This document shows, one piece after another, positions 9,783-46,514 of a stretch of 64,000 nt of DNA. Positions within the stretch are counted from its first letter, which is position 1. The number at the start of each line of letters is the position of its first letter. Source of the DNA: Candidatus Bathyarchaeota archaeon (lineage in GTDB: Archaea; Thermoproteota; Bathyarchaeia; JAPDIZ01); the NCBI GenBank assembly GCA_029259355.1, contig JAPDIZ010000003.1, positions 69,181 to 133,180 of the forward strand, in the 5' to 3' direction. Under the pieces are notes generated by a model. It was given only the letters and a program-made list of their open reading frames with translations, was not told where the DNA came from and did not search any database. The translations under genes and the position numbers were made by a program.

Positions 9783-10091
9783 TTAGGCTTCTTTTGAGAG
9801 GTTAAAGGGCTTTCCATCCCGCCAAATCTTCTCTGGCATCTTGTCCTTCCACTTCCTCAGAAAGTTTAGGTCTTCCTTTTTATCGCGTAGCTCGTCGGGG
9901 AGCATTATGGGTATTTCGTCGTCTATTGGGTAGTAGCGGCCGCACTTTGGGCAGTAGAGAACCCCGTACACTATCTCCTTATACGGCTTGCCTTCTCTAT
10001 CGACTTCCTCCCTCTCCTCGAAGACGTAGAGCTCTAGGGGGTGGTGCTTGTCTATTGGACACGCAAGAATCTCCATCAGCCAGTACTTCAA
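9783..10091 (-). CDS. Trm112-like small zinc-finger protein
   Basis: [15 protein letters not shown]...[21 protein letters not shown] matches the Trm112 signature (LACP...C..C.R.YPI.DGIP.ML). Confidence 0.65.
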
Positions 10092-11240
10092 CTAGCGCCT
10101 CACCTTGCGGATTATGCCGCTTACCACGCTTCTCGGGTTTATCCTTATACTCGGCCAAATCCTCGCGTTCTTCTTTATCTTGGCGTATTCGCCCACTACA
10201 CAGTTAGCGCCTATTATCACGTAGTCGCCTATGGAAGCCTTCTGTCCAATGGTGCAGTTCTCCGCTACCACGCACTTCCTTAGCCGAGAACTATCTCCCA
10301 GCTCTGTATTCTCGTACACAATGGAGCCGTTTAGCTTGCTGGACTTGCCCACTGTTACACCATTTTTGATAACTGCACCTGGGGTGACTACTGCCTCCTT
10401 CTTCACAACAACATCGTCTTCGATTAACGCGGGGCCGATTATCTTAGCATCTCTCTCGACGCGCACATTTTCACCTATCCAAACAGGCCCAGCAACCTTA
10501 CCCTCCACCTCGCTATTCTCTGCAACATAGTTTCTTAGCCGCTTCAACACCCAAAGCGTTGCTGCTACATACCCATCTAGGCTTCCAACGTCAACCCAGA
10601 AAGCATCGGTTCTGTAGCCGTACATGGGCTTGCCTCGTGACAGAAGATCTGGGAAGAGATCTCTAGCGAAATCATAGGGGGTTTTGGGGGGGATGTAGTC
10701 AAAGATTTCTGGCTCACACACGTAGAGACCTGTGCTTATGGTTTTAGAGAAGCACTCCTCAGGCTTGGGCTTCTCAAAAAACTTCACTATTCTGTTGCTT
10801 CTGTTTAGTTTGACAACTCCAAACCTCCAAGGATCCGGAACCTTCTTCACAGCAATTGTGACTACTCCGCGCTTATGCTTGTGGTACTTCATTTCATCCG
10901 CGAGATTTATCTCCGTAACATTATCTCCCTGAATCACCGCAAAGGTTTCATCCAAATACTGCTGAGCGTTCAGAACCCCTCCAGCCGTACCCAGAGGAGT
11001 TTTTTCCCTAGTATACACTAACTTAACTCCTATCTTCGACCCATCTCCAAAGTACTCCCTTATCACGTGATCCATGTAGTTGGTCGTGATGATAACTTCG
11101 CGAAAGCCCTGATCCTTGAGAGAAGTCAGTATGTAGTATAGGATGGGCTTGTCAGCTATAGGCAACATAGGCTTTGGGCGGGTGTATGTTAGAGGACGCA
11201 AGCGGGTGCCCAAGCCGCCAGCGAGAACCACTGCTTTCAA
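10092..11240 (-). CDS. sugar-1-phosphate nucleotidyltransferase with C-terminal hexapeptide-repeat domain (archaeal GlmU/ST0452-like)
   Basis: N-terminal KAVVLAGGLGTRLRPLTYTRPKPMLPI (G-x-G-T-R nucleotidyltransferase motif); C-terminal LbH repeats. Confidence 0.8.
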   Translation of the reverse strand: MKAVVLAGGLGTRLRPLTYTRPKPMLPIADKPILYYILTSLKDQGFREVIITTNYMDHVIREYFGDGSKIGVKLVYTREKTPLGTAGGVLNAQQYLDETFAVIQGDNVTEINLADEMKYHKHKRGVVTIAVKKVPDPWRFGVVKLNRSNRIVKFFEKPKPEECFSKTISTGLYVCEPEIFDYIPPKTPYDFARDLFPDLLSRGKPMYGYRTDAFWVDVGSLDGYVAATLWVLKRLRNYVAENSEVEGKVAGPVWIGENVRVERDAKIIGPALIEDDVVVKKEAVVTPGAVIKNGVTVGKSSKLNGSIVYENTELGDSSRLRKCVVAENCTIGQKASIGDYVIIGANCVVGEYAKIKKNARIWPSIRINPRSVVSGIIRKVRR

Positions 11241-11510
11241 AGAAACCCCCGCACGCAGTCATAGCTTGGCTTCGACTTCCCCGTGCGTGTTGCAGAAGGT
11301 TTCTGCACCATGGTTTTTATGTTTTTGCCTACTTTTTATTGAAAAACTGCGCTGAAGTCTGGCGCGAATAGGCAGCATATGGGCTACGCTGAGGAAACAG
11401 CTAATAACCCCCAGCCTCCTCTACACGCGCTGAGAGAAACTGCTAGCAGGAAACTCTTAGCACAAGATGAGTTGTCAAGAATTTGTTGACTGCTATGGGA
11501 AGGAAGGCGC

Positions 11511-12602
11511 TTGACAACCATATGGCTAGACGTGCTCACCCATAAGCACGCTCTCTTGCTTAAAGAAGTTGGAGAATACCTGCGGAGAAGAGGTTTCAAG
11601 GTCTTCTACACAGCGAGAAGGATGAGCACACTCACCGATTTCTTAAACGCTTTATCAATCGATGCAGAGGTCGTTGGAAGCCACGGAGGCCGAGATCTCC
11701 GCAGAAAGCTTCTCCAAAGCCTTCGCAGAGCAAAAGAGCTGGTTCGCGTAGTGTTGGAGAAAAAGCCCTCGCTAGCCATCTCCCACGGGTCTCCAGAAGC
11801 CACTCGCGTAGCCTTCGGCCTTAAAATACCCCACATATGCATCCTCGACTCCCCACACGCAGAAGCAGTGTGTAGGCTCACTATACCCCTCTCATCACAC
11901 CTCCTCAGTACTTGGGCTATCCCCAAGAAGAGGTGGACCCCATACCTGATAGGCGGTTGCAGGCTTAGAACGTACAGAGCGCTAGACCCCGCACTATGGA
12001 TAAGAGGTGTTGAGCACCAGCCAGAGGAAGAGCCCTTGGTCGTTGTGAGAGCTGAGGAGTACTTCGCATCCTACATGCCTAGAGACGTAAGCGCTGCTTC
12101 TCTGAAGCTGGTCAAAGAGCTTGGCGAGCTGTGTAGGCGTCGGAAAGCTCGTGTGCTGGTGCTGGCTAGGACAGAGACGCAAGCGCAGAGGCTTGAGAGT
12201 GTAGCGGGGGAGGGGGTCGAAGTCGTTTACGAGTTGTTTCACGGGTCTCAGGTGCTGAGCAGAGCATGGGTTTTCCTCGGGATGGGAGGTACCATGACCT
12301 ACGAAGCCTCTTTGCTGGGAGTACCAACCGTAGCCTTTCCCCCAAGAAAGCCCACTGACTTAGAGCTATTCCTAGCTCAGAGAGGACTCGTCAGCATCGT
12401 GTACTCCACGTCTGACGCGATATCTCGTGTAGAAAGCGTTCTAAGCAACCCAGAGCCAGCTTTTCGCCGCCAGCGAAAGCGAGCGCAAAAGCTCTGGAGC
12501 CGTATGAGCGTCGCCGACTTTTACGACAAGCTCCAGAAATGCATAGACGAAGCTGTGCATAGAAGCACCGCCGCTATAGCTGAGAAAGCCGACAGCAGCT
12601 GA
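11511..12602 (+). CDS. uncharacterised protein, possibly DUF354-like (GT-B-like fold?)
   Basis: 363-aa soluble protein in glycan locus; TTG start; family assignment from memory only. Confidence 0.35.
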   Translation: MTTIWLDVLTHKHALLLKEVGEYLRRRGFKVFYTARRMSTLTDFLNALSIDAEVVGSHGGRDLRRKLLQSLRRAKELVRVVLEKKPSLAISHGSPEATRVAFGLKIPHICILDSPHAEAVCRLTIPLSSHLLSTWAIPKKRWTPYLIGGCRLRTYRALDPALWIRGVEHQPEEEPLVVVRAEEYFASYMPRDVSAASLKLVKELGELCRRRKARVLVLARTETQAQRLESVAGEGVEVVYELFHGSQVLSRAWVFLGMGGTMTYEASLLGVPTVAFPPRKPTDLELFLAQRGLVSIVYSTSDAISRVESVLSNPEPAFRRQRKRAQKLWSRMSVADFYDKLQKCIDEAVHRSTAAIAEKADSS

Positions 12603-13486: not shown

Positions 13487-13571
13487 AGGTTTTCTAACCC
13501 CAGTATCTAAGGAATCTCTTGGAGCTTAGTAGGAGCTGTTGGTTAAAAAGAAGTTCGCGGGAGGGGTTTAG

Positions 13572-14675: not shown

Positions 14676-14690
14676 AGCTGGGCGAGCGCG

Positions 14691-16064
14691 TTGACGAGAA
14701 GGCTGTTCGGCACAAATGGCATACGCGGAGTAGCTAACGAAGAGATTACCCCAGAATTCTCGGTTCGAATAGGCCAAGCCATAGGCACATTCTTCGGGTT
14801 AGGTAGCAAGATCTTGGTGGGGATGGATGGGAGAACTAGCAGCCCCATGATAAAAGCCGCTGTCGAAGCAGGTTTAGCTTCAGCTGGTGTCAAGGTATTC
14901 GACGCCGAAATGCTCCCCACACCAGCTCTTCAGTACGCGGTAAAGCACCTCGGCATGGATGGAGGAGTGATGATTACAGCCTCCCACAACCCCCCAGAGT
15001 TCAACGGGATAAAGGTGGTCTACAGCGACGGAGTCGAGCTTGACAGATCTCGAGAAGAGGAGGTTGAGCGCATATTCTTCGAGCAAAGCTTTGAGCAAGC
15101 GCCTTGGCACAAACTCCACGACCCCAAGAAGGTATCGAGCATCCTCGACCTGTACGTAGATGCAGTCAAGTCTCACGTAGATGTGGAGGCTATTCGAAAG
15201 CGGGGTTACACGGTTGTCGTGGACCCGGGAAACGGCGTTGGCGCGCTGACGACTCCTAAGCTCTTGAAAGAGCTTGGGTGCAGAGTGGTGGCTATAAACA
15301 GCGCGATAGATGGCTCCTTCCCAGGCAGACTACCTGAGCCGACGCCGGAAAACCTAGGCTTGCTCTCAGAGACCGTTAAAGCCGTTGACGCAGATCTTGG
15401 AGTAGCTCACGACGGAGATGCTGATAGAGCGATCTTCACCGACGAGTTTGGCGAGGTCCATTGGGGAGATGAAACGGGCATACTGGTCATGGAGCACCTA
15501 CTTAGACAGGGAAAAGGGAATGTGGTGGTTACTCCTGTAAGCTCGTCGCACATAGTTGAGGATATTGCACGCAAGTACGGCGCCAGAGTGGTTTGGACAA
15601 AGGTAGGATCCATAGTGGTCTCCAGAACCATGCTCAAGGAGGGAGCGATTTACTCCTACGAGGAGAACGGGGGAATCTTCTACAAGCCCCACCAGCCCGT
15701 GAGAGATGGAGCGATGGCTGTTGCTTTGGTGCTTAACATAATGGCTTCTACGGGCAAGACGCTTTCTCAGCTGCTGCGGGAACAACCCAAAGTCTACTTA
15801 GTGAAGAAGAAGGTGAAATGCCCTAATGAGTTGAAGGAGAAGGTGCTGGAGGAGCTCGTGAAGAAGACAGAGGGTATGAAGAGGATAACCATCGATGGCG
15901 TAAAAGTCCTCTTCAATGATGGAGCAGTGCTCATCAGGCCATCTGGCACTGAGCCTATCTACAGGTGCTTCTGCGAAGGCTACACTGAAGAGAGAGCTCG
16001 GGAACTCGCGGAGTGGGGCGTTAACCTGATTTCAGAAGCTGTGAAGAAAGTCTCCAGCTCATAG
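14691..16064 (+). CDS. phosphohexomutase (phosphoglucosamine/phosphomannomutase family)
   Basis: Active-site TASHNPPEFNGIK, metal-binding GVAHDGDADR, sugar-binding ...EENGG...; 457 aa. Confidence 0.85.
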   Translation: MTRRLFGTNGIRGVANEEITPEFSVRIGQAIGTFFGLGSKILVGMDGRTSSPMIKAAVEAGLASAGVKVFDAEMLPTPALQYAVKHLGMDGGVMITASHNPPEFNGIKVVYSDGVELDRSREEEVERIFFEQSFEQAPWHKLHDPKKVSSILDLYVDAVKSHVDVEAIRKRGYTVVVDPGNGVGALTTPKLLKELGCRVVAINSAIDGSFPGRLPEPTPENLGLLSETVKAVDADLGVAHDGDADRAIFTDEFGEVHWGDETGILVMEHLLRQGKGNVVVTPVSSSHIVEDIARKYGARVVWTKVGSIVVSRTMLKEGAIYSYEENGGIFYKPHQPVRDGAMAVALVLNIMASTGKTLSQLLREQPKVYLVKKKVKCPNELKEKVLEELVKKTEGMKRITIDGVKVLFNDGAVLIRPSGTEPIYRCFCEGYTEERARELAEWGVNLISEAVKKVSSS

Positions 16065-16808: not shown

Positions 16809-16810
16809 GA

Positions 16811-17332
16811 CTACACCACGCTAAAGGTTATTCTGTTCCACTGCCCAGTAAACACGAAGGTGTGGCTTTGCTCGTCGTATAGCCAAAGCTCGAAAATTAG
16901 GTCGTAGTTTTCACCAGGAGTATCGATTACGTAGTTAAACTCGAGGAGACGAGACTCCTCATTTGCGAGGAAGACCTGGTATTCCTTTATCACGGGGAGG
17001 TCAGCTGGCTTCTCCGTTGTGGGAAGCACCTTCTCATTTTGCCCAAGCTTCACCAACACACGAGCCCAGATAGCTTTTCCCATGTAGTTGTCAAGCTCTA
17101 CCCAGAGCTTGACGGGCTCTCCAGCTCTCACGGGGTTATCGGGGGTTGGGTAGTCGGTAGCCATCTTGTTCGGTCCCAAGGTAGCGATCACCACAAACCT
17201 CTCCGCTGGCGGAGGCTTGAGAGCTGCGTACGCTACAAAAGCCAGCACCAGTATCGCCGCTATCGCAACCGTTAAGACCACAGCCGTCTCTTCGCTTACC
17301 CAGACCTCCTCTTCTTTAGGCAAGGACATCAC
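16811..17332 (-). CDS. hypothetical single-pass membrane protein
   Basis: N-terminal TM helix then soluble domain; 4-nt overlap with upstream ORF and 2-nt gap to the GT2 suggest co-transcription. Confidence 0.35.
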   Translation of the reverse strand: MMSLPKEEEVWVSEETAVVLTVAIAAILVLAFVAYAALKPPPAERFVVIATLGPNKMATDYPTPDNPVRAGEPVKLWVELDNYMGKAIWARVLVKLGQNEKVLPTTEKPADLPVIKEYQVFLANEESRLLEFNYVIDTPGENYDLIFELWLYDEQSHTFVFTGQWNRITFSVV

Positions 17333-17832
17333 CCAATTTCCTTCTCAAGCAATTCTTCCAAAGACCTCTTTTCCCACCACCGCCACAGCCTCCAAGCTCC
17401 GTAAGTAATAGCCACAACAGCGACGGGTACTGTGACGTAGACTAGTATCTGCGTGATCTGTCTCCACCGCTCAGCAGATTCTCCCAAGGAATTTGCTTGC
17501 CCAACGATTTCGTTCGAGATGGCTATGGAGTTTTCGAGGAACTTCTCCGCTGCTTCAGCATCTCCAGCCTCGTAAGCCTGCTGGGCTTTGTCGATTAAGC
17601 TCTGAGCCTCGTTAAGCATCTGGACAAGCTGATTCACATCAGCGCCCTTTTCCTCAGCGCTTCTCACGGCGAGAAAGGCTTCCTCCAAAGACTTGTTAGC
17701 TTGCTCCAGCTTCTCCTGATAGCTCGCGCACGCTACAGCTGGTAGGTGAGGCGAGGAGAGCGCCATAGTTAGGATCAAGACAATTAGCGCCCAGCTGCTC
17801 GATCTGTCGGCGAACATCTCGAGGCTCTCCAC
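17329..17832 (-). CDS. hypothetical secreted coiled-coil protein with C-terminal membrane anchor
   Basis: Signal-peptide-like N-terminus, alanine/glutamate-rich helical region, C-terminal TM followed by basic tail RLWRWWEKR. Confidence 0.35.
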   Translation of the reverse strand: MESLEMFADRSSSWALIVLILTMALSSPHLPAVACASYQEKLEQANKSLEEAFLAVRSAEEKGADVNQLVQMLNEAQSLIDKAQQAYEAGDAEAAEKFLENSIAISNEIVGQANSLGESAERWRQITQILVYVTVPVAVVAITYGAWRLWRWWEKRSLEELLEKEIG

Positions 17833-17886: not shown

Positions 17887-20127
17887 GTGTTCCTCGTGAG
17901 CTCATACAGACCTGTTCAGGCAACAGCTCTTCTGTTGGTTGTGTTCGTGATCGGGTTCTTCACCAGAATTCTACTGTTTACCCAAGCCCCCACACCACCC
18001 GGCGATGACGAAGCCGTGCTCTGCGGAGTTGCTTCCTACGTGCTTGAAGAGGGAAAGCTTCCCGAGAAAAACCCCTACCACATGTACGGAACGCCCTTCG
18101 TCTACCCTCCGCTTATGCACCTACTCTGCGCTCTGACATCAGCCGCTTGTGGGCTGAGTGGGTGGGGGGTGCTTGGAGCAGCGCTGTGGCTAACCATTTC
18201 GATCGATACATTCACCACACTCGCAGTGTATGCCGTGTCTAAGAGAATTCTCCAAAGCGAAGCCTGCTCGCTCCTCTGCGCGCTTGCCTACTCAGTTGCC
18301 AGCCCCCACCTCTACATGATGTGCTGGGGTGGATACGTAAACTTGCTGACGCTCTTCTACGTACCCCTCATCGTGGGGGCGCTGCTCCGTCACCTAGGAG
18401 GAGACTTTGTGAGGGGGTTTCTGACGCTAACCATCTCTCTAACAGCCGTTTTCTACTCCCACCACTTCTCCGCTGCCATCACGCTAGCGCTATTGAGCTG
18501 CACCGTGTTGGCGTTAGCAGCTACCAGAGCTCGCGAGAAGAAGACGCTGAAGTGGTTTTTCTGGGCAAGCGCGGCCACCGCATCCTCAGCAGCTGCGTCT
18601 GGGGCTTGGTACATCCCCAGATACGCTGAGTTCGCCTCGATATTCGCTAAAGCTGGAGCAGAGGCCTCCGTTTCCGCAACCCCGCAGATGATCGCTGAGG
18701 CTGCGTCCACCACCATATTGGGTATGGGGGCACCCTTTGCTGCGCTACTGCTTTGGCTCGTTGCCCTAGGCTTTGACTACGTTTGTCGAAGAAGAGGCTA
18801 TCTCGGCGTTGAGACCATATGCGTCTTCACGTGGTTTCTGGTTCCCTCCTTGCTTGGGCTACCCTTCGTATCGAAATCCCCCATGCTCTTCCAGAGATTC
18901 TTCTACTTCTCCACTCAACCCCTCGTCATACTCGCCGCAACGGGGCTGTTCTACATAGCAGTTGTGAGCGCACGGCTCAGCGACGCGCCAGCAGCTTTCG
19001 CTACCTTAGCCGTATCGATGCTTCTACTGGGATACTTCTTGGGAAACTTCTACTTCATCGGCTTGAGAGGGTTCTACGACGGAAACCTTGAGTGGTTTAG
19101 GAGCGGAGACGCTTCGACCAAGCACCTCATTAACTGGCTGTTTACGAAGTCGGAAGAAGGTTGCGTCATAGCTTCCTCTCACTCTCTCGGGTGGTGGCTC
19201 TCCGGGTTTTCACACCGCGGCATCATACCAGCAACACCAGCTAAGTTCCTAACCTTTCCCTACGAACTCGACCTATGCAGAGCAGCGTTTGTCTGCGTAA
19301 ACACATGCGTCTGGGCGGAGTCTGGAAGACACGCACTTATGGACAACGGGTTGAGGGGTGTGTTAAAAACTCCTCAAGTGTGCGTCTTGCGAGCTGGTGA
19401 GGTCTACCCGGGGATAGAGCTAGACACCAGCAAGCTATGCGTAGTCGTAAGAGAGGGGGGTGTGGTAAGGCGTTATGAGCTAAGCGATTTTGAGCCATCT
19501 CGCTCAGAGCTCGTTGCGAAGGGCAATGCGGTAGAGATGCTGTACGCCTATGAAGCAGATGAGCTTTGGCTGCGCCGAAGAGTGATATTTCCAAACAGCT
19601 CTGAAGGAGCAGATGTCTACCTAGAGGTTGGGGGAAAAGAGGTTTTGGAGGTTTGGGTTGGAGTGGATACACCCCTCGCCTACGAAAAAGCATACGCTGG
19701 CGATGGATGGGTGGGCTTCTTCGACAAAGCCGAGATGCTTGGCGCAGTAGCAGTCTTTGATCCAGAGCCACACGCGGTGCTCGGCGGAGAGGAGGGGAGC
19801 TACTTGGTCGTCTTCTGGGGAGGAGGTGGAGAGTTCCGAGCCAAGATATCGCTGCTGGTATTCGACGCCAGCAAAGCGGAGGTTAGGGAGCCGAAGGATT
19901 GGCTTGAGGAGATGATAGAGGCTAAGGTGGGGGGAGGGGGCGTAGAAGTGGCTACGGTGGACGAGCTGATGGATGTCTACAAAATCTCGTACGTAGCTGA
20001 TCAGGATGGCTACACAGCATACTCCATAGCACGCAGCCCCCGCTTCGACCTGATCTACTCCTGCTACAAAACGAAGCGAGGCTGGGAGGAGCCTACGAGA
20101 GTCTTGGTGCATAAGCGCTTGCTCTAA
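17887..20127 (+). CDS. GT-C-fold membrane glycosyltransferase (STT3/AglB-like or PMT/ArnT-like), 13-TM N-terminus plus soluble C-terminal domain
   Basis: 746 aa; N-terminal polytopic region with acidic loop PPGDDEA; C-terminal soluble domain about 300 aa; a WW-containing stretch LGWWLSGFSHRG instead of a canonical WWDYG. Confidence 0.5.
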   Translation: MFLVSSYRPVQATALLLVVFVIGFFTRILLFTQAPTPPGDDEAVLCGVASYVLEEGKLPEKNPYHMYGTPFVYPPLMHLLCALTSAACGLSGWGVLGAALWLTISIDTFTTLAVYAVSKRILQSEACSLLCALAYSVASPHLYMMCWGGYVNLLTLFYVPLIVGALLRHLGGDFVRGFLTLTISLTAVFYSHHFSAAITLALLSCTVLALAATRAREKKTLKWFFWASAATASSAAASGAWYIPRYAEFASIFAKAGAEASVSATPQMIAEAASTTILGMGAPFAALLLWLVALGFDYVCRRRGYLGVETICVFTWFLVPSLLGLPFVSKSPMLFQRFFYFSTQPLVILAATGLFYIAVVSARLSDAPAAFATLAVSMLLLGYFLGNFYFIGLRGFYDGNLEWFRSGDASTKHLINWLFTKSEEGCVIASSHSLGWWLSGFSHRGIIPATPAKFLTFPYELDLCRAAFVCVNTCVWAESGRHALMDNGLRGVLKTPQVCVLRAGEVYPGIELDTSKLCVVVREGGVVRRYELSDFEPSRSELVAKGNAVEMLYAYEADELWLRRRVIFPNSSEGADVYLEVGGKEVLEVWVGVDTPLAYEKAYAGDGWVGFFDKAEMLGAVAVFDPEPHAVLGGEEGSYLVVFWGGGGEFRAKISLLVFDASKAEVREPKDWLEEMIEAKVGGGGVEVATVDELMDVYKISYVADQDGYTAYSIARSPRFDLIYSCYKTKRGWEEPTRVLVHKRLL

Positions 20128-36028: not shown

Positions 36029-37944
36029 CGAAGACCTGATACAGACTCAAAGTCATATGCTTTATCGAGCGCGTTTATTCGGTGCACTGGATATCCTACA
36101 TCGAGTATCCTATCCGTCAGAGGGGTTTTATCCATCTCCACGCGAATCGATTTTACGTAGTAGAAATCGACGAACTCGAGGTTTTGCAAGTTCACATAGC
36201 CTATCCTGCCAGTCCATGGGTCAAAGTAAAAGGGCGAAATGCTGTTCGATGGAAAGGGAGCGCTCCTCCCTAGCCAGTTGATGACTATGAAGTCCCTCTG
36301 AGTTATTCTTACACCAAACATCTCACTACAATACTCGAAGTAGCTGATCGCGTATAGACAAGCCACCACAGTTATCGCCGCGAGTAGAGCGTAGCGAATA
36401 TACCTAGTTGCTGAGCCGAGTAGCTTGAGAACATAGCTTAACCCAACAGCTGCTAGAACGCAGGCAGGCACAGAAGATACGTAGACAAACCGGGGGATGT
36501 CTGGCGTGTCTAGGGGGAACTGCGCGTAGAACAGGCTTTGCTCAGCCAACACGACTGAGGAGAGAAGCCAAAGAACCAATAGCTTTCCTCCATACCCCTC
36601 TTCGAAAAACGCGTAAAAAAGCCCAGCTAACGTGAGCACGAAGACTATAGGCGAGAAGTTGGATACAAAGTCGAACAGAAGCCTGACAGGGACCTCGACC
36701 ACCTCCTCATAGTACATAGACACTCTTCCATAGACTATGAGGTATGTCACAGAAACAACTAACAAGCCCACAAACGCCTTTTTAGCCCAGCTCCAGCGGA
36801 GCCAGCTAGCTTCTTTCCTCGCTGTAAGCACTAAAGCTACAGCCAACATTGCGTAGATGAAAATCGACGCAGGATATGGATGCGTCAGCATCAGCGAAAA
36901 AACCATGATAGCGAGGGGGAGGAGAAGCCTATCGTCTCGCCTCTTCAAGTAGCAGAGGAAGCAGTGAGCAGCGTAAATCGAGAGAGCTACACCCATTAAG
37001 CACTTGTAGAGGTCAGAGGTGTGTCTGAGGATTCCCGGAGAGGTAGCGAAGAAAACCCCGGCAAAGGCCGCGGCTAGCTGGCTGCCAGTGAGCCTGTGGA
37101 CAAGCCCATAAGCCCCCACAGCCCCAAGCGCCATTAACAAAAGCGGCAACAGCTCAACCACCCTTATCCAGTAGGGTTTGTGGAGTGGTTGGAGAAAAGC
37201 GCCAATAGCCTCAAACGTTAGGTGAGCACCTTTGGTCATGAGCGGAAACTCGTGTGGAGAAACCCTATGCTCCAAAGTAGCGATGTAGATGGGTACGTCC
37301 CAGCCTACGGGCGCGTGAAGGCCTACGCTAGCAAATAACCGAGTGCTAACCGCTACAAGCGACACGAGAAAAAGCGGAAGAAACGAGTTCGGTGTAGTTG
37401 GCGAAGCAGTTTGTATAGTTCCTAAAGCGCCTTTCCCCCTATCAACAGCACTTTTCAAAAGAGACGAAAAGGTCCACCAATAAAGAAGCAAGAGCACAAC
37501 CTTGGTGGAAAGCTCGATCATCCAAGGTAACCTAAAGCCAGCTTGTGTTAGAGCAAATTCCACGAGGAAAGAGGGAGCTGCTACAAAGATCCACAGCTGC
37601 TGAATGGGCTTAGCGTTTCTGGGAAAAGCTAGGAGCGCATCACGTAACCAGTTCGGCGCAGCGATCCAGGCAGCTGTATAGATTGTGAAAGCGGCGAGAA
37701 GAGCAACTAGAAGTAGACGGGTAATGCCTCTCTTCAACTGGCGATGAGTTAGCCACCCCAACAGCGCTCCAAATGCTAGCGCAGCAAAGATTATTGAGCA
37801 GCATTGGCTGTGGCCAGGGTATGCGGTAAGGGCAATAGCTCCAGCACCAGTTGGTATCAGCAACAGCAGCCACGCAACTACGTCTATCCATCTTCTCCGC
37901 ACTTTGGATATACACCTGCCATCGCTCGCATAACTGCTCAACAA
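36025..37944 (-). CDS. large polytopic membrane protein, possible GT-C-like glycosyltransferase or polymerase
   Basis: 639 aa, more than 12 predicted TM helices by hydrophobicity, C-terminal soluble region; no diagnostic motif recognised. Confidence 0.4.
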   Translation of the reverse strand: MLSSYASDGRCISKVRRRWIDVVAWLLLLIPTGAGAIALTAYPGHSQCCSIIFAALAFGALLGWLTHRQLKRGITRLLLVALLAAFTIYTAAWIAAPNWLRDALLAFPRNAKPIQQLWIFVAAPSFLVEFALTQAGFRLPWMIELSTKVVLLLLYWWTFSSLLKSAVDRGKGALGTIQTASPTTPNSFLPLFLVSLVAVSTRLFASVGLHAPVGWDVPIYIATLEHRVSPHEFPLMTKGAHLTFEAIGAFLQPLHKPYWIRVVELLPLLLMALGAVGAYGLVHRLTGSQLAAAFAGVFFATSPGILRHTSDLYKCLMGVALSIYAAHCFLCYLKRRDDRLLLPLAIMVFSLMLTHPYPASIFIYAMLAVALVLTARKEASWLRWSWAKKAFVGLLVVSVTYLIVYGRVSMYYEEVVEVPVRLLFDFVSNFSPIVFVLTLAGLFYAFFEEGYGGKLLVLWLLSSVVLAEQSLFYAQFPLDTPDIPRFVYVSSVPACVLAAVGLSYVLKLLGSATRYIRYALLAAITVVACLYAISYFEYCSEMFGVRITQRDFIVINWLGRSAPFPSNSISPFYFDPWTGRIGYVNLQNLEFVDFYYVKSIRVEMDKTPLTDRILDVGYPVHRINALDKAYDFESVSGLR

Positions 37945-38065: not shown

Positions 38066-39019
38066 ATGCGGCGCATCACCATAGCTATCCTCGTCGTGCT
38101 GCTTTCTGCCCTAGTCATCGTTTTGCTGAAGCCCATGGGAGAAGCGGTTAGCAAGCCAGAGCTTGAGTGGAGCAGCGACGTCAAGCCTGGCTCAGGGCCT
38201 GGTCAGCCCCCGCCCGACATGCCTCCCGACGCTGATGGGCCGTGGAATCACCGCATACTGATTGCGTGCTCATCCGATGGGCTATCTTGGCAGAAAAAGT
38301 ACGTAATTTTAGCTGACCAAGCATCTGTTCCAGACGCCATCATCGACAAAGAGGGGAACATACGCGTATACTATTGCGACTACTTCAACGGCGGGATCAC
38401 CGTAGCCATATCCAAAGACGGCGAGAACTGGATCTATAAGCGAGTAAAGGGCTTATCCCCGGAGTGGGCTGACCCAGACGTAGTCATCCTACCCGACGGG
38501 AGGTATAGGCTATACGCTTCATACTTCCCCTTGGTGGGGAGCCAAGACCGCATAGTATCCGCTATCTCAGAAGACGGCATCAACTTCATACCCGAGGAGG
38601 GAAACCGCTATCATGAACCCGGAACTCTGCTAGCCGACCCCGATGTCTTCTGGGCTGGAGACCACTGGGTCATGTTCGTCGATACAGGCGGAGCCTTGAT
38701 CATGCTAACCTCAGAGGATGGGCTCAACTTCACGAAGATTGGGGAATTGGAGCTTGAAGTTGATTCTGGAGGTGTATCTTGCACAATCCCCGTCGAAGGT
38801 GGGTACAGGATATACTTCCACCGCGGCAAGCCTCTTCAAATCTACTCCGCCTTTACATCAGACCTCAAAAACTGGTCAGAGCCAGTGCTCGTGCTTGAGG
38901 CTGGCGAACCCGGGTCACTCGACGAGTTTGGAACCGCGGATCCTGCGGTTGTCAAGCTTCCACAAGGGGGATACCTGATGTTCTACAAAACCTGGATAAA
39001 CCCGCCAAAAAGCCTCTAG
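38066..39019 (+). CDS. secreted BNR/Asp-box repeat beta-propeller protein (putative glycosidase-like)
   Basis: Signal peptide MRRITIAILVVLLSALVIVLL; four Asp-box-like repeats (SSDGLSW, SKDGENW, SEDGINF, SEDGLNF). Confidence 0.6.
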   Translation: MRRITIAILVVLLSALVIVLLKPMGEAVSKPELEWSSDVKPGSGPGQPPPDMPPDADGPWNHRILIACSSDGLSWQKKYVILADQASVPDAIIDKEGNIRVYYCDYFNGGITVAISKDGENWIYKRVKGLSPEWADPDVVILPDGRYRLYASYFPLVGSQDRIVSAISEDGINFIPEEGNRYHEPGTLLADPDVFWAGDHWVMFVDTGGALIMLTSEDGLNFTKIGELELEVDSGGVSCTIPVEGGYRIYFHRGKPLQIYSAFTSDLKNWSEPVLVLEAGEPGSLDEFGTADPAVVKLPQGGYLMFYKTWINPPKSL

Positions 39020-40014: not shown

Positions 40015-40090
40015 CTACTCACACCTGCGCTAAGCTTTAACTCCACGGCTAAAAATAGCTATTCGCGTTTGCGGAGAGATGCGTTGAAAG

Positions 40091-41230
40091 ATGATCGATG
40101 TTTGCTTGGTTACGCTTAAGTACCCACCGCTGCTGGGTGGAGATGCAAGCCACACTCAGCAACTAGCCAAAGAACTCTCGAGGAGAGGGTACAGAGTAGC
40201 TGTAGTAACGATCAAGCCGAGAAAGAAGCCTTCTTCTCAGTACGAGGACGGCGTTTGGGTGGAGAGAGTTGGGGTCGGTAGCGAGACCACTGAGCTTGAG
40301 CGGTTTTGCCTCAAGAGAGCGCTGTTCATCGTCTGCGCCTTTGCAGCGCTTGCCAAACTCTGGGCTAGAGCGGGCATCCGAACAATACACTCCCACGGCT
40401 GGGACCCCGGCTTGGTATGTGGACTGTTCTCGCTCATCACAAGAGCTAAGCTAGTCCACACCCTTCACGGCATTCCCCGCGTCAGTGGGTTGCTTGCTCT
40501 CTGGGAAAGGCTTGTCCTAAAGATCTGCTCTGCAGCTAGAGCTTTCCTCATCGCGCTTAACCCAGAAGACGCTGAGCTAGCAGCGTCTATGGGGGTTCCG
40601 AGGAATCGAATAAGGACTATACCCAACGCTATCGACGTAGAGAAGTTGTCGAGAGGAGATGCGGGGGCTTTTAGATCGAGGTATGGGGTGAGGAAAGGGG
40701 AGGCTGTAGCTATCTTTGTGGGAAGACTCCACGCTCAAAAAGGCGTCGATACCCTAATCCGAGCAGCACGCCTTCTGCAAGACTACCCCATAAAGTTCTT
40801 CGTCATCGGATCAGGACACGAAGCCCGCAGATACCTCGAGGAAGCTAGGGGCTTGAGCAACCTCCGCTTTTTGGGAGAGGTCCCTGAGGATGTTTTGAGC
40901 CAAGCCTACGCAGCTTGCGACATCTTCGTGCTACCATCCATCTTTGAGGGAATGCCCTACGCGCTCATGGAGGCTATGGCGCTGGGGAAGGCGGTGGTGG
41001 CGAGTGACATTGAGGGTGTGAAAACCCTAGTCAAAGACGGAGAGACTGGTCTTCTATTTCCCCCACGCGACCCCCAAGCTTTAGCAGAGAGGATTAAGAT
41101 CCTCTGCGAAAACCCAGAGCTTAGAAGGAAGTTGGGGAAAAATGCCCGCGAACTCGTGCTCTCCCGGTACAGCTGGGAATCGGTATTGAACAAGCTCCTC
41201 AGGCTCTACGGAGTGATTCCCTTTGGCTAA
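40091..41230 (+). CDS. GT4 glycosyltransferase (GT-B, group 1)
   Basis: FVLPSIFEGMPYALMEAMALGKAVVASDIEG. Confidence 0.8.
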   Translation: MIDVCLVTLKYPPLLGGDASHTQQLAKELSRRGYRVAVVTIKPRKKPSSQYEDGVWVERVGVGSETTELERFCLKRALFIVCAFAALAKLWARAGIRTIHSHGWDPGLVCGLFSLITRAKLVHTLHGIPRVSGLLALWERLVLKICSAARAFLIALNPEDAELAASMGVPRNRIRTIPNAIDVEKLSRGDAGAFRSRYGVRKGEAVAIFVGRLHAQKGVDTLIRAARLLQDYPIKFFVIGSGHEARRYLEEARGLSNLRFLGEVPEDVLSQAYAACDIFVLPSIFEGMPYALMEAMALGKAVVASDIEGVKTLVKDGETGLLFPPRDPQALAERIKILCENPELRRKLGKNARELVLSRYSWESVLNKLLRLYGVIPFG

Positions 41231-42389
41231 GCTATCCATCGCGCAAGCAGCTTCTTACTACCCACCCGACTTTGGAGGAATAGAATCTTACGTCTACAAC
41301 ATATCCATCCGAATGGCTAGGAAGGGACACCGGGTTGTGGTGCTAACCTCAGAGCACCCAAGATGTTCTCAAGTCGAAGTTGTTGAAGGTGTTGAGGTGA
41401 GGAGGCTTAGAGTCGCTAAGAAGTTCTTCGGCTTTCCCCTAATGCCCAGCTTACCCACCCAGATAGCCTCCGAAGACTTCGACGTAGTTCACGGACACAT
41501 CAACGCCCCTCTAGTCGTAGACCTAGCCGCACTAGCCTCTAGGGCTTCGCACACTCCTCTGGTAGTGACCTATCACGCAGACCTGCTCCCCGAAGAAGTA
41601 GCTGAGGGAAGCATAGCGTTGGCCAAAGCTCTCTCCGCAGTTTACGACACATCGATCAAGAGGTGGGTTCTGAGACAAGCTAGAGCCATAATCGCTACCA
41701 CACCCCTCTATGCATCAACCTCACCCTACCTCAGAAAGTTTCTGCGAAAAGTTAGGATAGCGCCTGTTGGGGTGGACGTAGAGCACTTTAAGCCCATGCG
41801 GGAGGAGGGGGTAAGGGAGGACCTAGGCATCCCCAAAGATCTGAGGGTTGTTCTCTTCGTTGGAAGAATGGTCGCCTACAAAGCTTTGGACATTCTCTTA
41901 GCGGCTTTCGCAAAGCTAGCCAAGGCGGTGAATGACGTAGCATTGGTTTTGGTGGGGGAAGGGCCTAGGAAAAGTTGGGCTTCTGCGCTTGCGAGAGAGC
42001 TAAGCGTTAAGAACAGAGTTTTCGTGGTGGGGAATGTGCCTCTTGAGACGCTTCCCAAGGTATATGCTATGTCCGAGCTTGTGGTAGTTCCTTCTAGGTC
42101 TAGGGCTGAGGCGTTTAGCGTCACAGCACTCGAAGCGATGGCTTGTGGAAAACCCGTAGTTGCGACTCGCGTAGGTGGAGTGCCCTACGTGGTAGTCGAT
42201 GGCGTAACAGGCGTCTTAGTTCCTCCGAAAAATGCGGAGGCACTTTGCGAGGCTATGCTTAGCTTGCTAAGCAACGAGGACGAGGCGCGTAGGCTGGGAG
42301 AAGCTGGTAGGAGAAGAGCTGTGGAGCTGTTTAGCTGGGATAGGGTGGTAAACCTAATTGAGGATGTCTACCTATCGGTAGCTGTGTGA
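41223..42389 (+). CDS. GT4 glycosyltransferase (GT-B, group 1)
   Basis: VVVPSRSRAEAFSVTALEAMACGKPVVATRVGG; overlaps upstream GT4 by 8 nt. Confidence 0.8.
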   Translation: MAKLSIAQAASYYPPDFGGIESYVYNISIRMARKGHRVVVLTSEHPRCSQVEVVEGVEVRRLRVAKKFFGFPLMPSLPTQIASEDFDVVHGHINAPLVVDLAALASRASHTPLVVTYHADLLPEEVAEGSIALAKALSAVYDTSIKRWVLRQARAIIATTPLYASTSPYLRKFLRKVRIAPVGVDVEHFKPMREEGVREDLGIPKDLRVVLFVGRMVAYKALDILLAAFAKLAKAVNDVALVLVGEGPRKSWASALARELSVKNRVFVVGNVPLETLPKVYAMSELVVVPSRSRAEAFSVTALEAMACGKPVVATRVGGVPYVVVDGVTGVLVPPKNAEALCEAMLSLLSNEDEARRLGEAGRRRAVELFSWDRVVNLIEDVYLSVAV

Positions 42390-42401
42390 GGCGGTGGTTT
42401 A

Positions 42402-42743
42402 TTGGAGGCGTACTACCTAGCCTTAGCAGCCTTTGGCGCGTTGATGGCTTACCTAACCTTTAGGGAGTATCGAAGGCGGAGGATTAGGCTAAGCAGCTTA
42501 ATCCTCTGGGAGATGCTATGGGTTTCGATCACGGTTTTCTGTCTATACCCTCCGCTGATAACCATAGCCATCGAAGCGCTGAACGTCGCTTTGCCAGTCC
42601 ACCTCTTCTCCGTTGCATCCATTCTGGTTCTCTTCGTGTTGGTGTATAGGCTATACGCAAAGCTTGAGGAGCTCAACAAAAACCTCATAAGGCTTGCGAG
42701 AGAGGTTGCGCTACGCCAGCTCGATGAGGAGCAAAAGAGCTAG
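42402..42743 (+). CDS. small membrane protein, DUF2304-like (GT2-associated)
   Basis: 113 aa, about 3 TM helices followed by a short helical tail; 3' end overlaps the convergent GT2. Confidence 0.45.
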   Translation: MEAYYLALAAFGALMAYLTFREYRRRRIRLSSLILWEMLWVSITVFCLYPPLITIAIEALNVALPVHLFSVASILVLFVLVYRLYAKLEELNKNLIRLAREVALRQLDEEQKS

Positions 42744-43414: not shown

Positions 43415-43421
43415 GGCTCGC

Positions 43422-45086
43422 CTATCCCCTAACTACGTAGTATGAGCCAATACCCGTATCTGTTATGCGGTTACCCCTAGGCAGGTAAGCCAATATGGGC
43501 ACGTGAGACTCTACCAAAAAGTATCCCCTTCTCCACACCTCGGCTTTGATCACAAGCGTGCTTCCCTCTTCCCAGGGCTGAAGCCTGTACATACACCTAC
43601 ACTTCCCAAACTTCCCTGTGTAGAGCGTGTTTATCCAGTCTCCGCTTTTTACGACGTGAACTTCAGCATCCTGCATAGCCATGCCATGCTGATCTACGTA
43701 ACACCTAATCTCCACGTACTCTCTGTTGCACATTCGAGCAGAGACTTGTACGCCGTAGCAATTTCCAACCGTGTCACGCTTCATAACCCTAATCTCTCTA
43801 GCAACGTATAGAGCTCCCGCTTTGGGGTTGTTGACTCCCAGCTTTTGAAGCAGCAGCATATCCCAGTTGGTGGATTTCGACCAAGAGCTACAGACAGATT
43901 GCGCTGAAAGGTTGCGTAAGATCCTCGTCGCCACCACGTCTTGCTTGAGGTAGAAGCTATAGTTGGACACGTACTCGACGGAGTATGAAACCAGCTCGAC
44001 CCCTAGCACCGCTACCACCAAAAAGGATACCACGAGTGGGGGAACGAGCTTAGCTCTGTTTGGCAGACGCACGCCCCTCTCGTAGAGAAAAGGCCAAAAA
44101 ACCGTAGTCGAAGCAAACAGCGCTATCGGAAGCGAAGCATAACACGCAAGCCTTTCTGGGCTGCCAAAGGTGTAGATCAGCCTAACGTGCATGAGCGAAA
44201 GAGGTATGAGAGCCCAGAGAGCGAGGAAGACCAAAGCCTGCTCGTTTAGCTGCCTTCTCCTCGCAAGAGTAGGGACTGCGAAGAGCGAAGCAACCATCAA
44301 AGCAGCTAAAGACAGTCCGAAAAGGTGGACGTATGGAAAGTAGAGCACGATCGAGGGCTTAGCCCAGACTACTGGAAAGGTGTAGAATCGTACCAAGGCT
44401 TTGGCACAAGCTTCGTAAAGAACTAGGAACAAGGCGAATGCTAATAGGATGGCGGCAAACCCAGCCCTATCTCTCCTCAAAAGCTTGATCGCTGCAGCAT
44501 ACGCCAACACCACTGCGAAGGTGAAGAATAGCGTAGGTGAGTGGGTTATGAGCATTCCTACGATCAAGAGAGCGTAGATAGCCCAAGCTCTTTTCGTAGA
44601 CTCTGACATCGCTATCATCAGAGCAGTAGCTGACAGCATATAGTAAGAGAGTATGAAGGGGTAGAGGCCACAAGCCAGTGCCTCAACCTCGCGAGGCGAT
44701 AGAGCGAGTAACAGAGCCGCTAACCCACCGACTCCATGAGAGCGAGCGAATCTCCTGCCTAGAGCGTAAGCGGGGATAACGAGCAGAGCCGAGGAAACCG
44801 AAGCAAACGCCTTGGTTGCCTCAAAGATTTGGGAGAGGTCTCCGCCTCCCCAAATGGCGGTCGAGAGGCAGAGGAGGATGTGCAGAGCTGGTGGATACCT
44901 CTGCGAGATAGAGAGCTGCTCAGCCGAGAGGCTAGACATACCAAGCATTAGGAAAACGCGCTGTAGGTGAATAGCTGGATCCTCTCCAAGCGGTGGAAGC
45001 GATAGGCAGAGCAAACGCACTCGAATGAAGAGGGCGAGGAGGAAGATCAGCGAGAGCGTGAAGATGGCTTTGCTGGAGCCTCGCAA
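43422..45086 (-). CDS. polytopic membrane protein with C-terminal soluble domain (possible GT-C-like)
   Basis: 554 aa; N-terminal two-thirds strongly hydrophobic; C-terminal roughly 170 aa Cys-containing soluble domain. Confidence 0.4.
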   Translation of the reverse strand: MRGSSKAIFTLSLIFLLALFIRVRLLCLSLPPLGEDPAIHLQRVFLMLGMSSLSAEQLSISQRYPPALHILLCLSTAIWGGGDLSQIFEATKAFASVSSALLVIPAYALGRRFARSHGVGGLAALLLALSPREVEALACGLYPFILSYYMLSATALMIAMSESTKRAWAIYALLIVGMLITHSPTLFFTFAVVLAYAAAIKLLRRDRAGFAAILLAFALFLVLYEACAKALVRFYTFPVVWAKPSIVLYFPYVHLFGLSLAALMVASLFAVPTLARRRQLNEQALVFLALWALIPLSLMHVRLIYTFGSPERLACYASLPIALFASTTVFWPFLYERGVRLPNRAKLVPPLVVSFLVVAVLGVELVSYSVEYVSNYSFYLKQDVVATRILRNLSAQSVCSSWSKSTNWDMLLLQKLGVNNPKAGALYVAREIRVMKRDTVGNCYGVQVSARMCNREYVEIRCYVDQHGMAMQDAEVHVVKSGDWINTLYTGKFGKCRCMYRLQPWEEGSTLVIKAEVWRRGYFLVESHVPILAYLPRGNRITDTGIGSYYVVRG

Positions 45087-45098
45087 CTCCTCCCCCAG

Positions 45099-46514
45099 CT
45101 AGCTACGCTGAAAAGCTTGTGGAGGCCTACCCAACCCCCTCCAGATAAAGCCCAGCTCTATCGCGTGATTTGGGTCTACTATTCCTCTAGCGTCTACTAG
45201 GACGCAGGGCTTCTTAACCAGCGACCAAACTCTTTTCCAGTCCACTTCTTGAAAAGCTCTGTGCTCAGTAGCGACCACCACAGCATCAGCTCCCTCCACC
45301 GCTTCATACACAGACGAAGCAGTCTCTGCTGGAGCCTCCTTCACATACGGGTCAAATGCTACGACTCTAGCTCCTTCTCCGACTAGCCTCTCTATCAGCT
45401 TTAGAGACTGGCTTTCGCGCGTGTCGCTCGTCTCTCCCTTAAAGGCTAAGCCGAGCACAGCTACTCGCGACTTCCTCACCTCTTTACCAGCTTCCAAAAG
45501 CCCGTCGCGAAGCAAATCCAACACGTGGAGGTACATCGAGCTGTTTAAGTTCCTAGCTGAGACTATTAGGCTGGTGTCTATCCCCAGCTTTTCACCCACA
45601 GCAGCTAAGAAAAGCGGGTCTTTGGGTAAGCAGCTCCCACCAACCAGCCCTGGGTTCAATATGTTTACAGAGGAGTAGCCGCGGGACAAGGTGTTGGCTG
45701 CGGAAATCACCTTTCTCACATCTGCGCCGTAAGTTTCGCAGAAGAGGGCTATGAGGTTTCCGAGAGCTATCGACACGTCGATCCAGAGGTTGTCAGCAAG
45801 CTTAACCAGCTCAGCTGCCCTAGGGTTTCCCACGTCGATGGTTTCTAAGCCTAGGCATCTGAAGAAGGCGACGACGCAGTCTCTACTCCTTGGGCCGACT
45901 GCTCCCACGACTACAGGAAGCTTTGCCAACTCCTCCAAAGCCCTACCCTCTGACAAGCGCTCTGGGCAAAACGCTAGGGCAAAGTCTTGCTCAGCCTTCA
46001 GCCCGCTTCCATGCTCTAAGGCTGGCTTAAGCAGCTCCTCCGTAGTTCCCGGAGGAACCGTTGACTTCAGCACAACAACCTGACCAGCTCTGAGGCGGCT
46101 AGATATAGCCTCTGCAGCGCTTCTCAGATACCTTAGCTCCGCGCTTCCATCCACCCCTAGCGGAGTACCAACCGTTATCACTATCACGTTGGAAGATTCC
46201 ACGGCGTAGGCTGAGTCTGTGGTAGCCTCTAACATCTTAGACGCTATGCATGTTTTCAGAGCTTCCTCGAGCCCAGGCTCAAAGAAGGGGGTTTCTCCTC
46301 TCCTAACCTTCTCAACGACTTCTTCGCTCACATCTACTCCAACAACCCTTATCCCCCTTTGAGCCATGAAGGCTGAGAGGCAGAGCCCGACGTAGCCAAG
46401 CCCGAAAACAGATGCGACGAGTTTACCCGATTTGTGCCATCGATCGATCTCGTCGGGCGTGGGTATGGGCATAGAGACACCACACAACAATTGCTCAGGC
46501 TTCTTCATACCCAC
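45099..46514 (-). CDS. UDP-glucose 6-dehydrogenase / nucleotide-sugar dehydrogenase
   Basis: N-terminal NAD-binding VFGLGYVGLCLSAF; central region with catalytic Cys (GGSCLPKD). Confidence 0.85.
   Translation of the reverse strand: MGMKKPEQLLCGVSMPIPTPDEIDRWHKSGKLVASVFGLGYVGLCLSAFMAQRGIRVVGVDVSEEVVEKVRRGETPFFEPGLEEALKTCIASKMLEATTDSAYAVESSNVIVITVGTPLGVDGSAELRYLRSAAEAISSRLRAGQVVVLKSTVPPGTTEELLKPALEHGSGLKAEQDFALAFCPERLSEGRALEELAKLPVVVGAVGPRSRDCVVAFFRCLGLETIDVGNPRAAELVKLADNLWIDVSIALGNLIALFCETYGADVRKVISAANTLSRGYSSVNILNPGLVGGSCLPKDPLFLAAVGEKLGIDTSLIVSARNLNSSMYLHVLDLLRDGLLEAGKEVRKSRVAVLGLAFKGETSDTRESQSLKLIERLVGEGARVVAFDPYVKEAPAETASSVYEAVEGADAVVVATEHRAFQEVDWKRVWSLVKKPCVLVDARGIVDPNHAIELGFIWRGLGRPPQAFQRS

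Follow-up and report, generated by a model that had tools for sequence, protein, structure and literature searches.

A family of STT3-like putative glycosyltransferases without the sequon-reading motif in a Bathyarchaeota archaeon

The window analysed here, a 64,000-nucleotide stretch of the genome of a Candidatus Bathyarchaeota archaeon (assembly GCA_029259355.1, contig JAPDIZ010000003.1 of 212.5 kb, positions 69,181 to 133,180), encodes four large polytopic membrane proteins, M746, M639, M554 and M494, which on the evidence of their sequences are paralogues of a single unannotated family of GT-C glycosyltransferases derived from STT3. AglB/STT3 is regarded as the hallmark enzyme of N-glycosylation and is identified through its WWDXG motif. 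The feature is real and well delimited, consisting of GT-C enzymes that resemble CAZy family GT66 and lack the sequon-reading motif, with the glycosyltransferase role itself putative, and because the motif for target-site recognition is missing, the four proteins probably glycosylate some cell-surface target other than that of AglB. The family had not been annotated before and carried no name in the source records that we saw. A first-pass annotation of the window, made from the DNA letters and a list of open reading frames (ORFs), had singled out all four proteins, and each of them was recovered in our ORF list at the expected place (Table 1).

Homology and fold of the four membrane proteins

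None of the four proteins matched a Pfam model even at E <= 10, which includes the STT3 (PF02516), PMT and Wzy-type models that the first-pass annotation had suggested trying, and none matched an NCBIfam model. No match was obtained to sequences of the Protein Data Bank (PDB), whether the proteins were used singly or in a shallow profile. By neither Pfam nor fold did any of them resemble a transporter or other non-glycosyltransferase family, an outcome for which the first-pass annotation had left room. Compared by blastp, M746, M554 and M494 were weakly similar to one another over their membrane domains (E 1e-4 to 1e-6). Word-indexed homologue searches with M746 and M554 returned strain variants only, and the same type of search with a 131-sequence profile returned mainly remote bacterial PMT_2/GT39 proteins that do not belong to the true family. 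When 1.84 billion representative proteins were searched exhaustively by HMMER with a small profile of the family, 273 clusters were recovered at E <= 1e-3, 57 of them at E <= 1e-10, and many of the proteins were 700-780 amino acids (aa) long. A family hidden Markov model (HMM) built from 127 of the recovered sequences, with the window proteins excluded, matched M746 at E = 3e-99, M554 at 6.5e-42, M494 at 8.7e-38 and M639, over residues 191-579, at 5.6e-21; hhalign likewise aligned M639 with the family at a probability of 98.9% (E = 1.5e-17). M639 carries in addition an N-terminal extension (residues 1-186) of about six helices, modelled with low confidence. This extension is only faintly similar to the DUF2304 protein of the window (50% over 20 residues). 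We considered whether M554 is orthologous to another family member, about 560 aa long, that stands beside a DUF1616 gene in related genomes and dropped the idea, as no similarity between the single sequences could be detected.

The homology of the four proteins to STT3 is visible solely through the family profile. Run against PDB sequences, this profile matched human STT3A (E = 1.4e-25), human STT3B (7e-22), yeast STT3 (1e-16), A. fulgidus AglB (about 1e-16), C. lari PglB (1e-10 to 1e-11), isolated C-terminal domains of AglB (1e-7 to 5e-4) and TMEM260 (1e-6), and it matched no ArnT or PMT structure. Among 74 family members scanned with Pfam, the remote ones were assigned to models of the GT-C clan only (PTPS_related 19, DUF6541 13, PMT_2 13, STT3 6 and PMT 2), with three further matches to DUF1616, one weak match to Wzy_C and one weak match to EpsG.

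The AlphaFold2 model of M746, for which a 31-sequence family alignment was the input, reached a pLDDT of 81.9 and a pTM of 0.80, and its top 18 Foldseek matches were all STT3, AglB or PglB. The model of M639 was weaker (pLDDT 64.7, with the core at 70-94), and its top 15 matches were all STT3 or PglB. M746 is predicted to comprise about 13 transmembrane (TM) helices followed by an STT3-type central core and then by a galactose-mutarotase-like β-supersandwich, an appendage in which it differs from AglB, STT3 and PglB. The GT-C fold, with its approximately 13 TM helices and extracytoplasmic C-terminal domain, is nearest to that of the solved oligosaccharyltransferases (OSTs), and the hallmarks of the GT-C superfamily are all present, namely a polytopic fold, an acidic catalytic residue in loop 1 and homology within the clan. 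PMT1/2/4, TMEM260, ArnT, DPY19 and AftA/AftD share the single dominant loop-1 Asp with our family, and some remote members match the PMT_2, PTPS_related and DUF6541 models, but the sequence and structure scores of these enzymes were clearly below those of STT3/AglB and they do not have the STT3-like C-terminal core. A PMT or ArnT identity for the four window proteins was rejected on model and fold evidence, as none matches a PMT, PMT_2 or ArnT model and the fold is not nearest to PMT or ArnT.

Active-site residues kept, lost and gained

Conservation was expressed as column percentages over about 130 sequences of the family, whose identity to M746 is otherwise only 15-25%. The catalytic Asp of loop 1 (D41 of M746) is 93% conserved and aligns with D49 of the ExD motif of STT3A, while the first acidic residue of that DxD/ExD motif is unconserved in the family. 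R337 of M746 is 90% conserved and aligns with STT3A R405, which together with PglB R375 we take to be the Arg that binds the lipid phosphate. H192, conserved at 93%, is an additional His gained by the family and not a feature of AglB, STT3 or PglB. The Asp, the His and the Arg are retained in all four window proteins.

In canonical OSTs the WWD motif binds the sequon at its +2 Ser/Thr, and the acidic motifs bind the metal. The second of these acidic motifs, in external loop 2 (EL2), reads DxD or DNE in the canonical enzymes, but in our family WGGY-(P/V)-N-hydrophobic is aligned to S-Y-D167-N-E169 of STT3A, so that both acidic residues are gone. Beyond the last TM helix, where the STT3-type C-terminal core begins, the family consensus A-I-x-W-I-x-x-N-T-...-(D/S)-H-x-x-G-W-W-x-x-G-x-x-x-R-P-T-L aligns without gaps to fungal STT3 and to the 'WWDYGYWIE' of P. 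furiosus AglB. In this ungapped alignment, fixed by a conserved anchor at either end (W-I/L-x-x-N-T and R-P-T-L), the WWDYG site corresponds to S431-H-S-L-G435 in M746 and to (D/S)HxxG, followed by WW, family-wide; the subfamily of about 560 aa has 'DSDHRMG' there. A pairing of the family's WWxxG in register with WWDYG, based on the spacing in PglB, was overruled by the doubly anchored alignment onto (D/S)HxxG. The closest approach to the motif named in the first-pass annotation, LGWWLSGFSHRG, proved essentially right in that it overlaps the homologous site, its 'LG' ending the site and WW following at +1/+2.

The first-pass annotation had found no canonical WWDYG, and indeed WW[DE]xG and W[WFY]D[YWF]G are entirely absent from all six frames of the window. 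None of the 229 protein sequences retrieved has a WWD-type motif at the homologous site (two chance WW[DE]xG strings lie inside membrane segments), and a WWDYG-type motif is also missing from the window and about 30 related loci. The region of loop 5 is variable and modelled with low confidence, and the Glu of TIXE/SVSE, a feature of the canonical enzymes, appears not to be conserved, with one subfamily reading TGAxxET and M746 reading ASVSA. The segment of M746 concerned (approximately residues 255-280) is disordered and loop-5-like, and its AEASVSATPQ resembles the 'SVSEHQP' of STT3 with Ala for the catalytic Glu, which may be chance. A different kind of WWDYG variant was seen in P0194, an AglB-like protein of 845 aa from a metagenome-assembled genome (MAG), which has 'LWPDGS' at the WWDYG position and keeps EPD and TTQE.

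Related loci and proposed function

Orthologues of M746 occur in Bathyarchaeia at 25-31% identity. In a scan of GTDB species representatives, which do not include the window's own genome, relatives of M746 (26-28% identity) were found in Bathyarchaeia MAGs only, among them the complete chromosome CP070773.1. Related loci were sought with a six-sequence alignment, and a scan of JGI metagenomes contributed 19 more; one locus (L001) is an 85%-identical syntenic relative of the window. In 14 of the approximately 19 loci with sufficient upstream DNA, the M746 homologue has a divergently oriented DUF1616-like gene upstream of it, and the gene for the 167-aa protein is detectable at its conserved position in seven loci. 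Downstream of M746 homologues, orthologues of the nucleotidyltransferase NT367 (53-57% identity) and of GlmM (55-58%) recur, as do GT4, AglH-like transferase, DUF354 and GT2 genes. In related Bathyarchaeia the 167-aa/DUF1616 operon runs on into the family's other GT-C, the S560 type of about 560 aa, at a position occupied in the window by the short GT2 gene 16059-16808. In L006 and L023 a 50% orthologue of this GT2 adjoins the M746 homologue, and GT2 genes of similar size adjoin family members in L006, L023, L010, L003, L013 and L018. The DUF1616-like and 167-aa proteins had no significant similarity to family members, and a fusion relationship between them was dropped, though 3 of the 74 members scanned carry Pfam DUF1616.

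Two or three family paralogues stand in tandem or close together on other archaeal contigs (L007 871-5525, L009 2209-12307 and L010 1918-6401) that also carry GT2, GT4 and methyltransferase genes, and such multi-copy arrays appear typical of the family. For M554, M494 and M639, close relatives were limited to strain variants. M746 is classed as the conserved core type and the other three as lineage-specific paralogues. One locus, L018, encodes a Wzx/MOP-type flippase, a PAP2 phosphatase and an ALG6/ALG8-like GT-C (26.7 bits, just over the cut-off), none of which has a counterpart in the window; the gene set of the L018 cluster is eukaryote-like.

Our preferred reading, to which we assign a probability of roughly 0.5, is that the four proteins, as GT-C paralogues of the STT3 lineage, act extracytoplasmically on dolichyl-phosphate-linked monosaccharides and serve a non-sequon acceptor. 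They would span the cytoplasmic membrane, present the active site on its outer face and transfer a sugar from dolichyl phosphate to an acceptor other than the Asn-X-Ser/Thr sequon. The likeliest donors would be dolichyl-phosphate monosaccharides supplied by the neighbouring short GT2 enzymes (16059-16808; 42740-43414 with its DUF2304 protein; and, from the remnant, 57422-57982), and the likeliest acceptors would be lipid-linked or protein-bound glycans, the whole amounting to an extracytoplasmic decoration system like GtrB/GtrC or AglD/AglS. M746 would be the core enzyme, probably partnered by the divergently encoded DUF1616-like and 167-aa membrane proteins, and its β-supersandwich would be a domain of carbohydrate-binding type; M554, M494 and M639 would be fast-evolving versions that diversify the surface glycan.

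This reading is favoured because short GT2s of the PpgS/AglJ/ArnC type adjoin the GT-C genes as they do in three-component systems, because there are several paralogues per genome, unlike AglB, with three evolving fast, and because M746 bears a carbohydrate-binding-type domain, while the mechanism of a canonical OST is made less likely by loss of the acidic cluster presumed to form the metal site. The three-component logic of GT2 synthase, flippase and GT-C is established in bacteria (PMC11127046). As in the systems GtrA/GtrB/GtrC, PpgS-Rv3632-GT-C and Haloferax AglD/AglR/AglS, a GT2 synthase (42740-43414) abuts M554, another (16059-16808) lies three genes from M746 and the GT2 remnant is near M494; a DUF2304 protein is encoded beside the PpgS-like GT2, and the GT-C paralogues show high variability, like the serotype-converting Gtr enzymes. 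The placement of DUF2304 presumably mirrors that of mycobacterial Rv3632 beside PpgS. Unlike those systems, the GT-C here is derived from STT3 and is not of the GtrC, ArnT or PMT type, and the window holds no GtrA, SMR or MATE flippase by Pfam, only DUF2304.

This last point weighs against the preferred reading, and so do several others. The nearest relatives of the family are OSTs, which move whole glycans and not single sugars, and proteins of the M746 type occupy the slot expected of an OST in the conserved Bathyarchaeia cluster (AglH-like, DUF354, GlmM and Wzx-type genes), where the ALG6/ALG8-like GT-C could perform the dolichyl-phosphate-sugar step instead. The TGAxxET of one subset at loop 5 is TIXE-like, so that the catalytic apparatus of an OST may partly survive there, and the adjacency of GT2 genes is suggestive without being specific.

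A more tentative proposal is that proteins of the M746 type at least are non-canonical OSTs which transfer a finished lipid-linked glycan en bloc onto protein, at O-linked Ser/Thr or at Asn outside N-X-S/T, beside AglB or replacing it in some Bathyarchaeia. The nearest relatives by both sequence and fold are all catalytic subunits of OSTs, and the layout of the C-terminal core, including G-x-A-x-R-P-T-L, is near-identical to that of STT3 of the eukaryote/TACK type. The M746 cluster forms a near-complete pathway for a lipid-linked oligosaccharide (GlmM, GlmU-like, AglH-like, DUF354 and GT4 genes, with the Wzx-type and ALG6/8-like genes in L018), in which the M746 and S560 types are the sole STT3-like proteins. 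M494 is divergently paired with a canonical AglH-type gene, and no ORF with a canonical WWDYG was found in the approximately 300 kb of the window and related loci. The proposal has to contend, however, with the family-wide loss of the WWD triad and of the acidic EL2 motif, and with multiple paralogues per genome, three of them fast-evolving, which suit decoration enzymes more than an essential OST. Furthermore, nearly all archaea, TACK included, are said to have an AglB with the WWDXG motif, the fourth position being Tyr in TACK lineages (PMC8993221; PMC11407970). A canonical AglB is probably present elsewhere in this genome. Crenarchaeal aglB usually lies apart from the other agl genes, so its absence from these loci says little.

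More speculatively still, the (D/S)HxxG family might constitute a second, sequon-independent branch of OSTs, in which proteins of the M746 type, with the DUF1616-like and 167-aa proteins, would move lipid-linked glycans to protein hydroxyls or to sites other than N-X-S/T. If true, this would supply an enzyme for archaeal O-glycosylation or an alternative sequon, or a working OST for Bathyarchaeia without canonical AglB.

We think it improbable that the four are surface-polysaccharide polymerases or ligases of the Wzy/WaaL kind, joining lipid-linked repeats or anchoring a polymer to lipid or protein: the many GT4 and GT2 genes, the two initiating transferases and the isolated weak Wzy_C and EpsG matches among the 74 members would suit such a role, but none of the four matches a Pfam Wzy_C, EpsG or O-antigen-ligase model, the structures matched are those of STT3/AglB and further GT-C proteins, with no Wzy, WaaL, polymerase or ligase among the matches listed, and the window has no chain-length regulator or export genes. 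A reading of the four as remnants of STT3 that have lost catalysis, or else as transporters or scaffolds, is hardly credible, for although the WWD and second acidic motifs are lost, the Asp, His and Arg have been kept at 90-93% amid such divergence, synteny with glycosylation genes is conserved, and neither the family models nor the fold comparison matched a transporter.

The family indicates that the STT3 scaffold has been repurposed in archaea without its sequon-reading and metal-binding parts. It provides candidates for steps in the glycosylation of the archaeal surface to which, as far as we know, no enzyme has yet been assigned, namely the extracytoplasmic decoration of glycans and the glycosylation of proteins through O-linkage or at non-sequon sites, and four defined residues (D41, H192, R337 and H432) and two putative partners (the DUF1616-like and 167-aa proteins) offer concrete targets. 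There are also implications for annotation, as surveys of N-glycosylation capacity that use STT3 models overlook this family, and structure-based annotation would miscall its members as OSTs.

Glycosylation genes of the window

The gene inventory was drawn from the six-frame ORF list, with Pfam scans of about 60 ORFs and NCBIfam models in addition. Of the approximately 62 genes in the window, about 33 are glycan-related, a share far above chance expectation, and the setting of the four proteins in glycosylation clusters is itself a point of likeness to AglB, STT3 and PglB. What had been described as one very large locus (9783-46514) is split by unrelated genes into three sub-clusters, A (10092-25729), B (30705-46514) and C (53577-59136). 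Genes for a CxxCxxCC protein, a malate/lactate dehydrogenase, a VWA protein, a MoxR ATPase and a SLOG protein separate A from B (25790-30703), and HypB-like, RpiA and Liv-type ABC transporter genes separate B from C (46432-53600). The start of the earlier locus at 9783 is a Trm112 gene and no glycan gene, and its end at 46514 left out two features listed in the same annotation.

The enzyme counts given there needed several adjustments. Two genes of the Glycos_transf_4 (MraY/WecA/AglH) type and three methyltransferases were found as described, but the two initiating transferases are only 24% identical to each other and so are not recent duplicates. Alongside the expected pair of bifunctional sugar-1-phosphate nucleotidyltransferases, each an NTP_transferase with a left-handed β-helix (LbH) domain, there is a third, GalU-like enzyme, and the two paralogous epimerases (42% identical) are joined by another to make three of the short-chain dehydrogenase/reductase (SDR) epimerase/dehydratase type. 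In place of about eight GT4 enzymes we found six Glycos_transf_1 (CAZy GT4) genes and one DUF354 GT-B; of the four GT2 enzymes three are intact, but the fourth is a truncated remnant, probably a decayed gene near the AglH-type transferase and M494. The suggestion that the window serves two or more lipid-linked glycan pathways in parallel remains plausible from the gene content, with its pair of divergent initiating transferases and its three sub-clusters.

The start of such a pathway may resemble the crenarchaeal, eukaryote-like chitobiose start (AglH/Alg7 with Agl24/Alg13-14). The transferase 55973-56986 is of the AglH/Alg7 type, with DDxxD and NxxNxxAGxNGLE motifs, GlmM and GlmU-like genes lie alongside, and the DUF354 GT-B gene adjoins the other initiating transferase, although that 321-aa enzyme is divergent (60 bits). 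The DUF354 protein is possibly the Agl24-type transferase of the second GlcNAc. The genes discussed are collected in Table 1. Homologues of Agl24 have been reported in Bathyarchaeota (PMC8993221).

Table 1. Features of sub-clusters A, B and C of the window, and selected genes of related loci (scores are those of the named models; SAM, S-adenosylmethionine)
Feature	Position	Strand	Evidence and remarks
Sub-cluster A			
Sugar-1-phosphate nucleotidyltransferase with LbH domain, 382 aa	10092..11240	-	Pfam NTP_transferase 184 bits and Hexapep; NCBIfam Man-1-P guanylyltransferase-like and Arch_glmU-like, both below cut-off
DUF354 GT-B protein	11511..12602	+	Pfam DUF354 122 bits; adjoins AglH-like gene again in L006, L021
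Divergent MraY/WecA/AglH-family phosphosugar transferase, 321 aa	12521..13486	-	Pfam Glycos_transf_4 60 bits
NT367, sugar-1-phosphate nucleotidyltransferase with LbH domain, 367 aa	13572..14675	+	Pfam; orthologues just downstream of M746 homologues in many loci
Archaeal phosphoglucosamine mutase GlmM	14691..16064	+	NCBIfam Arch_GlmM 554 bits, cut-off 439 exceeded
Short soluble GT2 of polyprenyl/dolichyl-phosphate sugar synthase type, 249 aa	16059..16808	-	NCBIfam ArnC-like 88, Dol-P-hexose transferase 85, AglJ 70 bits
DUF1616-like single-pass membrane protein, 173 aa	16811..17332	-	Pfam DUF1616 33 bits
Two-TM helical protein, 167 aa, co-transcribed with DUF1616-like gene	17329..17832	-	No Pfam match
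M746, STT3/AglB-like putative GT-C, 746 aa, conserved core type	17887..20127	+	
GT4 (Glycos_transf_1) glycosyltransferase	20124..21353	-	Pfam
GT4 glycosyltransferase	21530..22612	+	Pfam
GT4 glycosyltransferase	22601..23755	-	Pfam
GalU-like nucleotidyltransferase	23758..24633	-	Pfam; NCBIfam galU 212 bits, below cut-off
SDR sugar epimerase/4,6-dehydratase	24689..25729	+	Pfam Epimerase 186 bits
Sub-cluster B			
SDR sugar epimerase/dehydratase, 380 aa	30705..31847	+	Pfam
SAM methyltransferase	31994..32827	+	Pfam Methyltransf_11
DegT/PseC/ArnB-type sugar aminotransferase	32864..33997	+	Pfam 437 bits; NCBIfam PseC-like 277 bits
SAM methyltransferase	34012..34623	-	Pfam
GT4 glycosyltransferase	34715..36028	+	Pfam
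M639, putative family GT-C, 639 aa; core residues 187-579	36025..37944	-	hhalign, family HMM, Foldseek
Signal-anchored protein, 317 aa, adjoins M639	38066..39019	+	Weak β-propeller glycosidase/phosphorylase matches only (GH130, GH43, GH32, BNR)
GT2 with C-terminal TM helices, 329 aa	39025..40014	-	Pfam; hydropathy
GT4 glycosyltransferase	40091..41230	+	Pfam
GT4 glycosyltransferase	41223..42389	+	Pfam
DUF2304 small membrane protein	42402..42743	+	Pfam 62 bits
PpgS/AglJ-like polyprenyl-phosphate sugar synthase GT2, 224 aa	42740..43414	-	NCBIfam PpgS 172, AglJ 120 bits, both below equivalog cut-offs
M554, lineage-specific putative family GT-C, 554 aa, directly upstream of PpgS-like GT2	43422..45086	-	Family HMM
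Nucleotide-sugar 6-dehydrogenase	45099..46514	-	Pfam; NCBIfam NDP-sugDHase 399 bits, cut-off 190 exceeded
Sub-cluster C			
SAM methyltransferase, overlaps end of M494	53577..54452	-	Pfam
M494, lineage-specific putative family GT-C, 494 aa; divergent from AglH-type gene, 58-bp gap	54430..55914	-	Family HMM
AglH/Alg7-type phosphosugar transferase	55973..56986	+	Pfam 116 bits; sequence motifs MLDDILD and NLTNLLAGFNGLE
N-terminally truncated GT2 remnant, Dol-P-sugar-synthase type	57422..57982	+	DxD reads RDR (PVMRDRS)
SDR sugar epimerase/dehydratase, 321 aa	58171..59136	+	Pfam; blastp against 380-aa copy
Related loci			
Family GT-C of about 560 aa	L003 7144-8823; L004 7205-8872; L005 7202-8896; L018 7050-8732; L020-L022; L024	all -	
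Wzx/MOP-type flippase (L018 only)	L018 16013-17530	-	
ALG6/ALG8-like GT-C (L018 only)	L018 17600-18883	-	
PAP2 phosphatase (L018 only)	L018 2534-3319	+	

Two ORFs without a family match lie within the interrupting stretches, at 29224-30093 (plus strand, 289 aa) and 47914-48468 (minus strand, 184 aa). The right flank of the window (59133-63962) encodes a B12-binding radical SAM enzyme, a phosphodiesterase of the alkaline-phosphatase superfamily and an ATP sulfurylase. In sub-cluster A, the genes for the DUF354 protein and for the divergent phosphosugar transferase are convergent, and their 3' ends overlap by 82 bp (12521-12602), an overlap that is also seen in L001.

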